Part shown: piece by piece, positions 129 through 4,932 of the stretch
Layout: every line of letters begins with the position of its first letter
Numbering within the stretch: the stretch's first letter is position 1
IMG/VR virus record: IMGVR_UViG_2541047757_000003
Reading direction: 5' to 3' (one strand)
Length of the DNA: 4,932 nucleotides
From: a virus
Taxonomy: Duplodnaviria > Heunggongvirae > Uroviricota > Caudoviricetes
The notes under the pieces: generated by a model
The model's database searches: none
Told to the model about the DNA's origin: nothing
Seen by the model: only the letters and a program-made list of their open reading frames with translations
Translations under genes and position numbers: made by a program

Positions 129-722
129 CTATTTGTCCCGGTTGGCTAAGGGATGACACAATTTATTCTTTGTCGCTGATGAGGGGAATTTTTTATAGAG
201 CGTGGACAGACCAATATCAAAAATCAGCGCCACACGTTGACGAGATTCCCCCGCAGCCAGCAACCGTCCGACCTGCTCCCACTCACCCGCAGTGAGTTTC
301 GGTCGTCCGCCACCAATACGACCTTTGGCTCTGGCCGCTTCCAGTCCGGCGCGTGTCCGCTCGACAATGAGTTCTCGCTCCATTTCAGCCAGGGCACCCA
401 TCACATGAAAGAAAAAACGCCCCATCGGCGTGCTGGTATCAATAGCATCCGTCAGGCTGCGAAAATTAACGCCGCGTTCGCGCAGTTCCTCAACCAGAAT
501 GACCAGATGCCGCATACTACGCCCCAGCCTGTCCAGCTTCCAGACCACCAGAGTGTCACCTGCTGATAATGTTCTGAGCAGTTTTTTCAGTCCCGGCCTG
601 TCGGACTTCGTGCCGCTGATTTTATCCTCAAAAATCAGCTCACATCCTGCACACTCCAGCGCGTTACGCTGCAATTCCGTGTTCTGGTCATTTGTTGACA
701 CGCGTACATAGCCAATAAGCAT
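129..722 (-). CDS. Serine DNA invertase (Gin/Pin/Cin/Hin family site-specific recombinase)
   Basis: The 197-aa ORF begins MLIGYVRVSTNDQNTELQRNAL, with the catalytic serine in the VRVSTxxQ motif. It has the conserved resolvase/invertase core (LVVWKLDRLGRS, GRFFFHVMGALAEMERELIVERT) and a C-terminal helix-turn-helix (RQRVALIFDIGLSTLYKK). It closely resembles Mu Gin and e14 Pin from memory. It sits immediately next to an inverted-repeat-bounded segment carrying tail-fibre cassettes. Confidence 0.93.
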   Translation of the reverse strand: MLIGYVRVSTNDQNTELQRNALECAGCELIFEDKISGTKSDRPGLKKLLRTLSAGDTLVVWKLDRLGRSMRHLVILVEELRERGVNFRSLTDAIDTSTPMGRFFFHVMGALAEMERELIVERTRAGLEAARAKGRIGGGRPKLTAGEWEQVGRLLAAGESRQRVALIFDIGLSTLYKKFPSSATKNKLCHPLANRDK

Positions 723-749: not shown

Positions 750-1244
750 ATGATGCCAGTTAGCTGTTACCTCTGCATTTTCTTAAACGTTGGAATAGGA
801 GAAACGGGAAAATACGACATTCTGCCAGCATCAAGAGGAGGCACTGGAGCGTCAACTATAGCCGGAGCATTGATAAACTTTGGTCTGAGTGATTTAGTGA
901 CTGCCGGATTAGTACAGGTGGAATCTGGTACAGACTTTATTACTGCTAAGATTCCATTTCTGTCCGGTGGTAGAAAGCGATTCCTGATGATACATGCCAT
1001 CAAGGCGACAATGCCTGCAAATAATAACGGGTATAACCTTACTGTTACATTCCCAACTGCCTATGATAATGCACCGATACCAATTCTTGGCTCGACCGTA
1101 GGGTCGACTTCAACAACGGGTGGTACCACAGAGTCAATGAATATTTCATCAGTCACAAAATCGGGTTGCATCATTTCTTCAGCATGGCAAACATGGTCTG
1201 AGGGACCGGTATATCTTTTAACGATTGGAGGAGTTGCAGCATGA
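750..1244 (+). CDS. Alternative tail-fibre C-terminal cassette (S'v-like), promoterless and silent in this orientation
   Basis: The ORF runs into the left crossover site without a credible start or RBS; its first 14 codons cross the site. At the crossover it encodes FLNVGIGETGKYD, which parallels YLGLGEAAKRD at the crossover in H. The site cores sit in the same codon phase (positions 2-3 of codon 789-791 here, and of Leu276 in H). Its stop overlaps the next assembly gene start as ATGA. The functional cassette is about 792-1244 (150 codons). Confidence 0.7.
   Translation: MMPVSCYLCIFLNVGIGETGKYDILPASRGGTGASTIAGALINFGLSDLVTAGLVQVESGTDFITAKIPFLSGGRKRFLMIHAIKATMPANNNGYNLTVTFPTAYDNAPIPILGSTVGSTSTTGGTTESMNISSVTKSGCIISSAWQTWSEGPVYLLTIGGVAA
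778..803. repeat. Left crossover site of the invertible segment (gix/hix-like 26-bp site, central dinucleotide at 790-791)
   Basis: The plus strand reads TTTTCTTAAACG-TT-GGAATAGGAGAA. Its reverse complement, TTCTCCTATTCC-AA-CGTTTAAGAAAA, matches the right-hand site left half-site at 10 of 12 positions with the same AA core. It fits the 12-2-12 architecture of Gin/Hin sites (consensus roughly TTnTCnnAAACC-NN-GGTTTnnGAnAA) and lies about 55 bp upstream of the invertase start. Confidence 0.7.
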
Positions 1245-1627
1245 AATATTATTCACCTTCAATTAATGGATTTCCCGAACAAAAGACTGATGACAGTATT
1301 GAGATCAGTGAAGAGGTCTGGAGAATACTTCTTAGTGAAATTTACTCAGGCCGGGAGTTATTTAACGATGGCGGCGTACCCGCTACCCGTGTGCCGCAAC
1401 CTACGCAAGAACAAGTAATTGCAGCCGCAGAAAATGAGCGCCAACGATTGCTGAATTATGCTGATACCGTAATGCTCGACTGGCGTACAGAATTGATGCT
1501 GGGTGAAATCAGCGACGCCAACAGGGCTAAATTGTCGGCGTGGCTGGCTTATAAAAATCAAGTTAAGTCGGTTGATGTGACAACTGACCCTGAGCATGTT
1601 AACTGGCCTATTTCCCCGGAGGCGTAG
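1241..1627 (+). CDS. Tail-fibre assembly chaperone, alternative copy (U'-like, Tfa family)
   Basis: The 128-aa ORF ends with a motif I recognise from Mu U / P2 G / lambda Tfa-type chaperones (EQVIAAAENERQRLL ... WRTELMLGEISDANRAKLSAWLAYKNQV ... DVTTDPEHVNWPISP). Its start is coupled to the upstream fibre cassette by an ATGA overlap, and it lies inside the invertible segment. Confidence 0.8.
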   Translation: MKYYSPSINGFPEQKTDDSIEISEEVWRILLSEIYSGRELFNDGGVPATRVPQPTQEQVIAAAENERQRLLNYADTVMLDWRTELMLGEISDANRAKLSAWLAYKNQVKSVDVTTDPEHVNWPISPEA

Positions 1628-2039
1628 GCCATTCAATATCTGGCGCACCGGAAGTATCGACCAGTTCCAGTGCGTCCAGATAATCCAGCCACGAATTATA
1701 TTGCGCCAGTTCCTCTCCTTTCAGACGACCAATCGCCGCTTTACCAGGCCATTGCTTACTGTTTATGTATTCGTTGACCTGATTAATCAATTGCTGCTTT
1801 TCCAGTTCGGCTGCGGCAATTTGTTCCTCATGAGTTGGCGGTGGAATATCAATCCATGCTGGCATTCCGTCGATGACACATCTGTATTTTCCTTCTGGTG
1901 CTTCCTTCATAAATTCGGCGGCAACAGTGTCGTCAATTTCGATTCCATCATCGGGCCATTCGCCGGATTCCTGATAAGCGATTTTAAGCTCCACAGGGAA
2001 AAACGCATTTTTCTCGGCACTGAAAATATATTTCTGCAT
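1608..2039 (-). CDS. Tail-fibre assembly chaperone, currently expressed copy (U-like, Tfa family)
   Basis: The 143-aa ORF sits directly downstream of H on the same strand, with a 2-bp gap and an AGGA-type RBS. It carries the same C-terminal Tfa-like motif (EEQIAAAELEKQQLI ... DTSGAPDIEWPTPP). Its 3' end converges on and overlaps the U'-like gene by 20 bp. Confidence 0.8.
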   Translation of the reverse strand: MQKYIFSAEKNAFFPVELKIAYQESGEWPDDGIEIDDTVAAEFMKEAPEGKYRCVIDGMPAWIDIPPPTHEEQIAAAELEKQQLINQVNEYINSKQWPGKAAIGRLKGEELAQYNSWLDYLDALELVDTSGAPDIEWPTPPGK

Positions 2040-2041
2040 TT

Positions 2042-3226
2042 CTACCGTCCTATCGAAATATAACTGAATCTGTATTGCTGTGAGATATCACTGGTTGCCA
2101 CACGCCACGCTGAATTACTGATATGTTCAAAATTTACAGACAAAACCTGCGGGGCAGGATTCGACGGGTCTGACTGAACGGCATCAGACATAACACTGAC
2201 TGAAACCATCGGCTGATTAGGGAATGGTATAGGGAAGTGTCCACTGATAAAGCGGGTCGTGTTTCCTGAAAAAGTGCCAAACTGAACAATATATCCACCT
2301 GGTAGCCTGAACCATCCCGAACCAGAAGCGAATGCTCCCATATCAGGTATCTGATTATCTCCTGTGCCCACATCCCTTTTCGCCGCTTCTCCTAAACCAA
2401 GGTATGTGAGAAGACCAGCTACATCCTTTCCACTCAAATTAGTCAGCGTATTGTCCAGCGGTTGTTTACCTGCCAGCGCATTGTTAATGGTGGTGCTGAA
2501 TTTCGGGTCATTGTTAATGGCTGCGGCAATTTCTTTCAGTGTATCCAGCGTGGCAGGCGCACCGTTAATCAGAGCGGTAATAACCGCCTGAACAAACGCA
2601 GTGGTCGCAATCCGCGTGGTGTTATTTCCTGCAGCAGGCGTCGGCGCTTTTGGTTCTCCGGTAAATGTCGGATTATGTTTCTGTGCATACTGGGTATGAG
2701 GATCCTGTGCGGCAATATGGTTTCTCATCTGGTCATCCACATACAGCCTTAATTCCAGGACTTCATCATCCACGTATTTACGGGTCGCCAGTACCACCGA
2801 CGGGTCGATTTTCAGCGTGATAGCTTCGGTATTCGTGACAACCAGAATCATGCGGATAGTCTGGGTACGACCGCTGCCTTCCTGCAACTGCGGTTTGTAC
2901 GTTTCCGGGCAGTTCGCCACCGCAATGAGTACGCCTTCATCATCATAAAGCCCAATCTCACGGATCCAGAATCCGCCCTCGTTCTCAGGGATGATTTGCT
3001 CCGCAATAATCTGGCTCTGGTTATTCGGGTCAACACTCAGAAGATTCAGCGGTGCAATGCGTTTCTGGTTAATCAGTTTTGTCTGTGCCGGGTCTGGTGT
3101 CGGCAAGACACCATTCGCATCACCAACGGCCATTTGCGTCAGATTCAGCTTACTGCCGAGCATCGTCGCGTTAGCCAGCCGTGCTGCGCCCTGATTAGTC
3201 AGAATGGCGTAGTATTTCACTGTCAT
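2042..3226 (-). CDS. H: Tail fibre protein: constant N-terminal part (about aa 1-276) fused to the currently selected variable C-terminal tip (about aa 277-394)
   Basis: The N-terminus (MAVGDANGVLPTPDPAQT ... GGFWIREIGLYDDEGVLIAVAN ... YKPQLQEGSGRTQTIRMILVV ... YVDD) resembles the P2 gpH N-terminal domain from memory. The start overlaps the stop of gene I as ATGA. The right crossover site lies within the coding sequence at 2387-2412. Confidence 0.88.
   Translation of the reverse strand: MTVKYYAILTNQGAARLANATMLGSKLNLTQMAVGDANGVLPTPDPAQTKLINQKRIAPLNLLSVDPNNQSQIIAEQIIPENEGGFWIREIGLYDDEGVLIAVANCPETYKPQLQEGSGRTQTIRMILVVTNTEAITLKIDPSVVLATRKYVDDEVLELRLYVDDQMRNHIAAQDPHTQYAQKHNPTFTGEPKAPTPAAGNNTTRIATTAFVQAVITALINGAPATLDTLKEIAAAINNDPKFSTTINNALAGKQPLDNTLTNLSGKDVAGLLTYLGLGEAAKRDVGTGDNQIPDMGAFASGSGWFRLPGGYIVQFGTFSGNTTRFISGHFPIPFPNQPMVSVSVMSDAVQSDPSNPAPQVLSVNFEHISNSAWRVATSDISQQYRFSYISIGR
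2387..2412. repeat. Right crossover site of the invertible segment (gix/hix-like 26-bp site, central AA at 2399-2400), embedded in H
   Basis: The plus strand reads TTCTCCTAAACC-AA-GGTATGTGAGAA. The left half-site is a good match to Gin/Hin half-sites (TTCTTGAAAACC or TTATCCAAAACC type). It is in inverted orientation relative to the site at 778-803. Confidence 0.72.
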
Positions 3227-3834
3227 GCGTTTACTCTCAGGTTATCAATTAAATGAATGGCCGAGGCCGGGAAATAATCCCCTCCGACAATAATGGCCTC
3301 CGGGGTGTAGGGATAAACCGTCAGGGCGTCGCCGTGATAGCATCCCGCACCGGCAAAAATGTTGCCGGTTGTACTTAAACTGATAGCCAGTCCCGTCAGA
3401 TGGCGGCTTGCAGGTTTTGCATCAGCAACGAGACGCTCCAGCTCCTGATACATTTCCTCGGTAATACCCTGCTCAAGCACGCCAACAACGATGCGGAACG
3501 TCCCCGGCTCCTCGTTGAGCTGCCACCACTCCCTCACCTCAATCAGATAGCCGAGCGGCTCCACCACACGGCGAATCGCACCAATAGTGCCCTTATGGCA
3601 GTGAATGAAATACGCATCGCGGATAACAGCGCGTTTGGTCGCTTCCGGCCATTTATCATCCCACCTGTCGACCGAAAATGACCACGCCAGCCACGGCAGC
3701 AGATTTGCCGGGCAGGTGTCCGGGTTCCACAGCTCACGAATACTGACCGGCGTTTTTTCAATTTCCGCACAGGCTTTTGCGGCGGCAACTTCAAGCGGTG
3801 ATGAGCCGGTCGGCAGCAGGCGCGAATCACTCAT
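3223..3834 (-). CDS. I: Baseplate assembly protein I (P2 gpI-like)
   Basis: The 203-aa ORF sits between J and H on the same strand in the conserved P2 order. Its start overlaps the end of J by 8 bp and its stop overlaps the H start. The true start could be an internal Met; the P2 gpI I recall is somewhat shorter. Confidence 0.75.
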   Translation of the reverse strand: MSDSRLLPTGSSPLEVAAAKACAEIEKTPVSIRELWNPDTCPANLLPWLAWSFSVDRWDDKWPEATKRAVIRDAYFIHCHKGTIGAIRRVVEPLGYLIEVREWWQLNEEPGTFRIVVGVLEQGITEEMYQELERLVADAKPASRHLTGLAISLSTTGNIFAGAGCYHGDALTVYPYTPEAIIVGGDYFPASAIHLIDNLRVNA

Positions 3835-4735
3835 CCGAGCCTCCGGTCACGACGCGGTATTCAGTACAGAAAGACGCCTGCGTACTGTTGAGCACGATGT
3901 CAGCCAGAGGTGCAGTCAGTTCGACACGCTGCACGCCTTCCACATGCAAAGCGGCATAAATGGCAGACAGACGGATGTCGCGCCCAAGCCGGTGCTGTGC
4001 CGTGATGTACGCTTCCAGTTTTTTCACGGCAGCAGCGCGGATGGGTTCGCTTTCGGGACCTGGGTAAAGGTAAAGCGTGGCGTTTATCTGATATTCAACA
4101 ATGGCGGCAGACTGCACGGTCACGCGGTCGGCCACCGGCCTGACATCCTCGCCATTAAGGGCGTTACGCACCACGGCCAGCAGGTCTTCGGATGCGACAC
4201 CGTTATTTTCACGTGACAGCACGGAGATGGTGACGCAGGCCGGAGACGGACTGGTGACAGAGATATCTGCGACGCGCCCGTCGGCACTGCGACCATGATA
4301 CTGATAGGCACCCACCGACCCGGCAACGCTTAAACCTTCAAACGCCTGCTGAATACGCAGCCGATAATCGGTGTCAGATTCCATCACTGCCGGTGTCGGC
4401 GGGATGGTCGAATCGTCTGCCGGGGTGATAGTCAGGCGCGTGGTGTTGTAATTGGCACCAATCACATCAAGGTCATTACCGGCGGCACAGGCCAGCATTA
4501 CCGCCCGTGCGGCCTCATTCACACGCTGACGCCAGATAAGCTCACGATAAGCATTTTCCTCCAGCAGTTTGACGAGAGGCTCGGATTCCAGCGTCAGGGT
4601 ACGGGCAACCGCCTCCTGCTGGTCTTCCGGGTAAAGGGAAATCAGTGTCGCCTTGCGTTCGGCAAGAATGGTTTCAAAGTCCAGCTCCTCAACCACATCC
4701 GGTGCGGGTAGCTGGTTCAGGTCGATAATCGGCAT
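3827..4735 (-). CDS. J: Baseplate assembly protein J (P2 gpJ-like)
   Basis: The 302-aa ORF begins MPIIDLNQLPAPDVVEELDFETILAERKA, which matches the length and N-terminus of P2 gpJ as I recall them. It is flanked by W upstream and I downstream. Confidence 0.85.
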   Translation of the reverse strand: MPIIDLNQLPAPDVVEELDFETILAERKATLISLYPEDQQEAVARTLTLESEPLVKLLEENAYRELIWRQRVNEAARAVMLACAAGNDLDVIGANYNTTRLTITPADDSTIPPTPAVMESDTDYRLRIQQAFEGLSVAGSVGAYQYHGRSADGRVADISVTSPSPACVTISVLSRENNGVASEDLLAVVRNALNGEDVRPVADRVTVQSAAIVEYQINATLYLYPGPESEPIRAAAVKKLEAYITAQHRLGRDIRLSAIYAALHVEGVQRVELTAPLADIVLNSTQASFCTEYRVVTGGSDE

Positions 4736-4739
4736 GGTT

Positions 4740-4932
4740 TCAACTCACAGGGATGGTTAACGAAAGTGGCTGGCCGGTGTCGTTGTGCTGGCCGGTTAAC
4801 GTGACCGTCATTCGCCCGTCAAAGCTGCGCTCAGTGATGACGGATGACAGGGTGACGCGGGGTTCCCATTTCAGCACCGCCATGTAACAGGCGACCTTAA
4901 TCTGCAACTCAAGCGCCGGGGTCTGCGGCTGG
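4740..4932 (-). CDS. W: Baseplate protein W (P2 gpW-like), 3' portion only (gene continues beyond the right edge)
   Basis: Reverse-complement translation of 4743-4931 gives QPQTPALELQIKVACYMAVLKWEPRVTLSSVITERSFDGRMTVTLTGQHNDTGQPLSLTIPVS, then a stop at 4740-4742. This closely matches the C-terminal part of P2 gpW from memory. It is not in the ORF track because the start lies outside the window. Confidence 0.8.
   Translation of the reverse strand, partial: QPQTPALELQIKVACYMAVLKWEPRVTLSSVITERSFDGRMTVTLTGQHNDTGQPLSLTIPVS

Follow-up and report, generated by a model that had tools for sequence, protein, structure and literature searches.

The ORF at positions 750-1244 of the analysed DNA, a stretch of 4,932 nucleotides referred to here as the window, is very probably the silent cassette of an invertible tail-fibre switch, carrying a false start codon that most likely derives from the promoter of the neighbouring invertase gene. 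The element belongs to the Din-family (Gin/Cin/Pin/Hin) switches, as it combines a recombinase, paired crossover sites, an in-frame crossover accompanied by chaperone genes, and the occurrence of both orientations. In the mechanism that best explains the data, two inverted 26-bp sites would be recombined by the invertase (129-722), with strand exchange at their 2-bp cores; one site is located inside the fibre gene H and the other 68 bp ahead of the invertase start. With each flip, H residues 1-276 would be fused in frame to either of two receptor-binding C-termini, each followed by its own assembly chaperone, and the swap would change the host range. Positions 792-1244 would represent the cassette that is currently off, antisense to late transcription and lacking a promoter or start codon of its own, while the ATG codons at 750 and 753 would be part of the fixed spacer that separates the crossover site from the invertase. 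Since these ATGs lie in the fixed spacer and appear to be the image of a promoter element, the 164-aa "gene" is probably an annotation artefact composed of 14 incidental codons and a real 150-residue cassette.

The window spans late tail genes of a P2-like prophage of E. coli, in which the W-J-I-H-tfa genes, the invertase gene and the sheath gene all occupy the minus strand. According to the ORF list and Pfam, a gpW-like ORF (4740-4907), the baseplate gene J (3827-4735) and the tail protein gene I (3223-3834) are followed by H (2042-3226), whose 394-aa fibre protein has a tail-collar N-terminus and a gp53-like C-terminus. The constant N-terminal part of H, residues 1-276 (2401-3226, minus strand), matched Pfam Phage_tail_fib (2.1e-62), and the C-terminal 118 residues, which form the currently expressed cassette B (2042-2398, minus strand), matched Gp53-like_C (5.2e-08, H residues 307-394). 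The chaperone gene paired with cassette B, tfaB (1608-2039, minus strand), was assigned by a Caudo_TAP match (1.1e-34). The two genes located between tfaB and the recombinase gene are encoded on the opposite strand. One is tfaA (1241-1627, plus strand; Caudo_TAP, 1.1e-19), the tail-fibre assembly chaperone paired with cassette A. The other is the ATG-initiated, 164-aa ORF under study (750-1244, plus strand), which contains the silent cassette A (792-1244, plus strand), comprising an alternative gp53-like tip of 150 H C-terminal residues and the stop codon. tfaA and tfaB are convergent, and their 3' ends overlap by 20 nt (1608-1627); the annotations of the related loci L001-L004 show this overlap as well. 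The invertase gene (minus strand, 197 aa) is separated from the sheath gene, which starts at 69 on the minus strand, by only 59 bp (70-128), a position that in P2 would presumably hold the late promoter of the sheath operon. In Megablast searches, the same gene organisation recurred at ~97% identity, both in numerous E. coli chromosomes and in P2-like phages, for example pro483. No RNA families were detected in the window (Rfam, E<=1), and no NCBIfam models matched the cassette or H.

The recombinase was identified as a serine DNA invertase of the Din family by a Pfam Resolvase domain (2.9e-52) and a C-terminal HTH_7 domain. It matched the PDB "DNA-invertase" chains 3uj3 (1.5e-92) and 4m6f (3.8e-91), both of which we take to be Gin, and shared 86% identity with PinE of e14, 78% with Cin of P1 and 76% with Gin of Mu. 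Its gene is preceded by a Shine-Dalgarno sequence, GGGGG on the minus strand (729-733), located 5 nt before the ATG and with a predicted dG of -9.4 kcal/mol. Based on the annotation of the P1 record and alignment, positions 633-704 are homologous to the recombinational enhancer of P1 cin (cin +19 to +90). This stretch lies within the first 103 nt of the invertase gene, a region with 88% mean column identity among four invertase genes, but it is also coding, so its conservation says little about function as a Fis-dependent enhancer.

The longest inverted repeat of the window, 778-812 and 2378-2412, contains two 26-bp quasi-palindromic sites with a 12-2-12 layout. The invertase-proximal site (778-803) reads TTTTCTTAAACG-TT-GGAATAGGAGAA, with the core TT at 790-791. 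The distal site (2387-2412) lies inside H and reads, as its reverse complement, TTCTCACATACC-TT-GGTTTAGGAGAA, with the core appearing as AA on the plus strand at 2399-2400. The two sites are thus inverted relative to each other and share the 2-bp core. They were the only sites in the window that scored >=16/21 against the site consensus, with ~0.02 such sites expected in shuffled sequence. A third crossover site, as in a multi-cassette shufflon or Min-type system with more than two fibre variants, was considered and rejected, the window having two sites only. The proximal core forms positions 2-3 of codon 14 of the ORF (GTT, 789-791), and the distal core forms positions 2-3 of a CTT codon of H, which places both genes in the same phase at the point of exchange.

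In-silico inversion of the 1611-bp segment 790-2400 kept both reading frames. H residues 1-276 became joined to ORF residues 15-164, giving a 426-aa fibre, H', with the junction ...KDVAGLLTYL|GIGETGKYDILPAS..., while the invertase-proximal ORF became a 132-aa ORF consisting of the same 14-residue leader followed by GLGEAAKRD.... The two forms would differ in their peptides, with DVAGLLTYLGIGETGK belonging to the fused H' product and MMPVSCYLCIFLNVGIGETGK being the N-terminal tryptic peptide of a stand-alone 164-aa ORF. The inverted arrangement was found in nature in IMG/VR contig L085, which was retrieved through its 100%-identical invertase. When 790-2400 was reverse-complemented, L085 matched the window in a single alignment of 4222 nt with 1 mismatch (99.98%). 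Aligned with the window as given, it gave three separate pieces, with breaks at 787-812 and 2377-2400, the proximal one falling at 787-790. L085 encodes exactly the predicted 426-aa fibre and 132-aa ORF, with tfaA directly downstream of H', and residues 1-276 are identical between the 394-aa and 426-aa forms of H. Furthermore, an exact-sequence look-up recovered the 394-, 426-, 164- and 132-aa proteins, all of them in public E. coli assemblies. The exact cassette pair of the window was found only in E. coli assemblies and in L085.

Although cassette A matched Gp53-like_C only weakly (0.0016, below the curated cut-off), it occupies the expressed position, as the C-terminus of full-length fibres, in three other E. 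coli prophages. In strains C2 and DETEC-S566 (L002 and L003) it ends a 500-aa P2-type fibre, and in USMARC-49610 (L004) a 247-aa fibre of an e14/Mu-type tail module. DNA identity to these three cassettes was ~99% and began exactly at the crossover site (window 785-787). Protein identity began at LGIGETGKYD, with ORF residues 15-164 differing by one or a few substitutions and residues 1-14 having no counterpart in the full-length fibres. The same cassette was thus observed on two unrelated fibre scaffolds (2956-4458 in L002/L003 vs 3717-4460 in L004), and the scaffold junction exactly at the crossover site suggests that the site also serves horizontal cassette exchange between prophage types. 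At its 3' end, the stop codon of cassette A overlaps the start of tfaA (ATGA, 1241-1244), which has a strong Shine-Dalgarno sequence (dG -9.3). This overlap, together with the strength of the tfaA ribosome-binding site, indicates that cassette A and tfaA are built as one unit downstream of the constant region of H. The first-pass annotation had read the ORF as a 5'-truncated cassette, expressed as the C-terminus of H after inversion, and this reading is supported by the frame-preserving inversion, the L085 contig, the database proteins and the homology that begins at the crossover. The anatomy of the element, the preservation of frame, the existence of both orientations in nature and the modular reuse of the cassette have thereby been demonstrated.

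The 5' end of the ORF presented a different picture. The frame opens with ATGATG (750-755), which places a second in-frame ATG at 753; upstream, the first stop in frame is TAA at 738. As the first-pass annotation had proposed, ATG750 lies 28 nt from the divergent invertase start (720-722, minus strand) and upstream of the crossover core, and the first 14 codons cross the recombination site, the core at 790-791 being in codon 14. Its further suggestions of an unconvincing ribosome-binding site and a missing promoter also agree with the sequence: the sole anti-SD match, GGGG at 746-749, abuts ATG750, and a consensus scan returned no sigma-70-like promoter on the plus strand upstream of 750. The GGGG is 0 nt from ATG750 (dG -4.5) and 2-3 nt from ATG753 (dG -5.7), so the 164-aa ORF has no ribosome-binding site at normal spacing; for comparison, the Shine-Dalgarno sequences of tfaA, the invertase and gene I had dG values of -9.3 to -9.5 and spacings of 4-8 nt. 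Nevertheless, a weak Shine-Dalgarno sequence proves little by itself, because H and J also scored poorly. A perfect -35 hexamer, TTGACA (695-700, plus strand), followed 16 nt downstream by AAGCAT, was present below the threshold of the scan. This pair, the only candidate promoter seen there, is a possible weak divergent promoter toward the ORF; the hexamer sits within the invertase codons for the catalytic VSTND motif, and a by-product of conserved coding sequence would be the simpler reading. A minus-strand terminator-like hairpin with a T-run (761-742), just upstream of the invertase Shine-Dalgarno sequence, encloses the ATGATG. It was treated as a chance structure, as e14, Mu and other junctions were seen by inspection to be unable to form a comparable stem. 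Unlike the stem, a GC-rich stretch followed by TTTT is conserved at this position.

The 14-codon leader MMPVSCYLCIFLNV (750-791, plus strand) lies outside the invertible segment and is not part of the cassette. It is fixed in place and joined to whichever cassette is silent, which in L085 is cassette B, giving the 132-aa ORF. Across ~80 related junctions, the cassettes fused to the leader were diverse and ranged from roughly 60 to 280 codons. An in-frame ATG located 39 nt before the post-core codon boundary was found in 45 of 55 distinct junctions, including those of Mu and K-12 e14. In seven of the 55, no in-frame start preceded the core; cassettes of 117-212 codons are kept in at least four of the seven (L102, L013, L016 and L011). 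In-frame stops interrupt the leader in L102/L103, L006 and L009. Among the related junctions compared, the start codon and N-terminus were therefore not kept wherever the cassette was intact. The 15-nt spacer behind the conserved motif was constant in length and free in sequence, with 20 spacer variants encoding 19 different peptides, and on this comparison the leader peptide is apparently free of protein-level constraint. Per-frame stop-codon counts in the leader were rejected as evidence, given that the sequences are closely related and the stops in the other frames come from fixed bases of the site.

As the ATG was conserved despite its poor expression signals, an alternative cause of the conservation was sought. 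A candidate extended -10 element of the invertase promoter, TGGCATCAT, was located on the minus strand at 750-758, and its reverse complement gives the ATGATG of the ORF. Of 48 distinct related junctions, 43 had the corresponding motif, TGNCAYNNT, at 25-27 nt before the start of the invertase gene, those of Mu and e14 among them. Within it, T-15, G-14, C-12, A-11 and T-7 were invariant and positions -13, -9 and -8 varied; the invariant positions are those that matter for an extended -10 element. In two junctions (L016 and L020) the distance from motif to invertase was kept, while the distance from motif to crossover was 31 and 50 nt instead of 39 and the cassette frame was lost. The A at 750 was retained even outside an ATG context (ATC, AGC, ATA, AGT), and the ATG at 753 was better conserved than that at 750. 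At the "second codon", CCA, the third position was invariant and the first varied, the reverse of what would be expected of coding sequence. Taken from these sequence patterns, ATG750 and ATG753 are most probably the opposite-strand image of CAT triplets in the extended -10-like element of the invertase promoter. We infer both the assignment of the promoter and the absence of native translation from 750 or 753.

A stand-alone gene at this position would require the weak divergent promoter and ATG750/753 to yield a low level of free fibre tip with a short hydrophobic leader, which would act on the host through receptor masking or the exclusion of other phages, as proposed for e14 StfE2. We regard this as unlikely, even though several observations speak for it. 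Conservation of the in-frame ATG extends from Mu to P2-like elements, over the 45 of 55 junctions described above, and from sequence, selection for a start codon is possible; 26 of 27 close variants keep an open frame, and TTGACA is present at 695-700 on the plus strand. The experimental precedent comes from Kirigo et al. 2025 (PMC12529663), in which StfE2, consisting of the stfE leader and the StfP C-terminus, is the invertase-proximal ORF formed after e14 inversion. StfE2 produced from a plasmid reduced adsorption of phage T2, and cells with the chromosomal inversion resisted T2, a resistance attributed to StfE2. However, the e14 ORF was treated as a gene though expressed from a plasmid only, no evidence for a native promoter, transcription start or start codon of stfE2 was given in that study, and StfP2, the true fusion fibre, also gave some protection. 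The leader peptide is unconstrained, and stops, frame loss or a missing start occur in L102/L103, L006, L009, L013, L016, L018 and L020, where several cassettes are intact. In addition, the motif tracks the invertase start instead of the cassette frame, the Shine-Dalgarno match abuts the ATG, and the curated annotations of Mu and K-12 treat the equivalent regions as a C-terminal fragment and a pseudogene. A cytoplasmic fragment of this kind would also have no evident export route. A related proposal, in which the conserved ATG serves two purposes, as part of the invertase promoter and as the start of a free fibre tip with a hydrophobic leader made from the invertase-proximal position, seems quite improbable to us. 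If it were true, a flip would change the receptor specificity of the virion and, at the same time, switch a tip protein that acts on the host by masking receptors against other phages, and the dual-use ATG would extend the claim made for e14 StfE2 (PMC12529663) to active P2-like prophages and Mu.

The ORF could instead be a dead remnant, a decaying pseudogene beside a recombinase that no longer flips it and expressed in no orientation. The atypical GGAATA sequence of its inner half-site could lower recombination efficiency and would fit this explanation. It is nonetheless very improbable. Public assemblies contain essentially the same element in both orientations, differing by one mismatch over 4.2 kb; the cassette itself has an intact ORF, ~99% identical to copies expressed in other prophages, and the chaperone gene that follows it is intact and translationally coupled. 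The silent but switchable cassette remains the preferred reading, with its start codon most probably contributed by the invertase promoter.

Several features of the crossover region were recorded alongside these results. The inner half-site that travels with cassette A (792-803) is GGAATAGGAGAA, with GGAATA next to the core. All of the compared related junctions that have a recognisable site carry GGTTT or a one-base variant of it (GATTT in L152 and GGTCT in L009). The TT-to-AA change in the GGAATA half-site encodes Ile in ...LGIGE.... This half-site might lower the flip rate or the efficiency of recombination, yet both orientations exist. Contigs ended 73-204 nt upstream of the invertase start in 10 of the 18 loci L005-L022 (L006, L008, L009, L010, L012, L015, L017, L018, L021 and L022), with the ends at or just past the crossover position; such breaks appear to fit sequenced cultures that mix both orientations. 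In E. coli ECMA0423 (L007), a run of 16 G replaces the spacer and crossover site, ~40-56 nt upstream of the start of a related invertase gene, which could be either an assembly artefact or a disrupted switch.

The organisation of the element was compared with that of known switches. As in the G segment of Mu (S/U vs S'/U', gin), the invertase start faces the segment, one crossover site lies inside the fibre gene, the two C-terminal cassettes each have a chaperone and are convergent, and the silent cassette diverges from the invertase. In the Mu spacer between site and invertase, the ATGCCA motif is likewise found 39 nt from the crossover. The same artefact is also present in the Mu RefSeq record, in which a GeneMark CDS, Mup52, extends 29 nt past the G boundary toward gin, while according to the curated note this region is the "carboxyl terminal end of S'". 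Mu differs in being a transposable phage with a segment of ~3 kb; here, a P2-like prophage carries a 1.6-kb segment with unrelated gp53-like tips, and the invertase is 76% identical to Gin. The P segment of e14 (stfP-tfaP / tfaE-stfE, pinE) has the closest invertase (86%) and the same family of sites, and its leader, MPFACYFFIFINV, is homologous to that of the window. In NC_000913.3, stfE is annotated as a pseudogene, and inversion of the segment has been documented experimentally. The e14-type element L004 carries cassette A of the window in the expressed position. In contrast to e14, a lambdoid/Mu-tail cryptic element, the element here takes its constant part from a P2 H-type fibre whose N-terminus is of the tail-collar type. 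A defence function was assigned to the invertase-proximal ORF that forms after e14 inversion (PMC12529663), whereas nothing comparable is known for the element described here.

The C segment of P1 (Sc + Sv/Sv', U/U', cin) uses a recombinase of the same family (78%) and likewise combines a constant N-terminus with alternative C-termini. Its record lists Sv' as the C-terminal moiety only and marks cixL/cixR and the enhancer inside cin. The 3' end of cin abuts cixL, so that P1 has no divergent invertase promoter and no leader ATG of the kind seen here. Among P2-like phages with an invertase, Escherichia phage pro483 has the same gene order and ~96% DNA identity over 73% of the window, and its record lists the cassette next to the invertase as a 176-aa CDS, "tail collar fiber protein". 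P2-like phages and prophages of this type, including pro483, hold cassettes in the invertible segment that differ from those of the window. A two-variant inversion in a P2-like prophage was noted by Goldberg et al. 2014, and loss of the part from the transcription start to the first inverted repeat was reported as a general signature of gene-altering inversions by Milman et al. 2023 (PMC9881135).

The design found in this P2-like E. coli prophage is that of the Mu G and e14 P segments and is therefore already known. The mechanism, the anatomy and the annotation artefact have all been documented, and all of the proteins are in databases. What is added is modest, namely an explanation of the conserved pseudo-start and the direct pairing of the two orientations of one element. 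The practical value of the finding lies in annotation. It had been anticipated that automated pipelines would call the ORF a stand-alone small protein or fibre fragment, and the exact 164-aa ORF was indeed found deposited as WP_187415639.1, "hypothetical protein". Equivalent ORFs are labelled "hypothetical protein", "gp53-like domain-containing protein", "tail collar fiber protein" or pseudogene "missing N-terminus". With at least five different labels in use for equivalent ORFs, counts of small or unknown phage proteins are inflated and a two-state fibre gene is hidden. The TGnCAYnnT motif offers a testable explanation for the persistence of a spurious start codon across elements ranging from Mu to the P2-like type. 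The phage-defence model of 2025 (PMC12529663) builds on the homologous e14 ORF being a gene; native use of the ATG would support that model, and its absence would undercut it.
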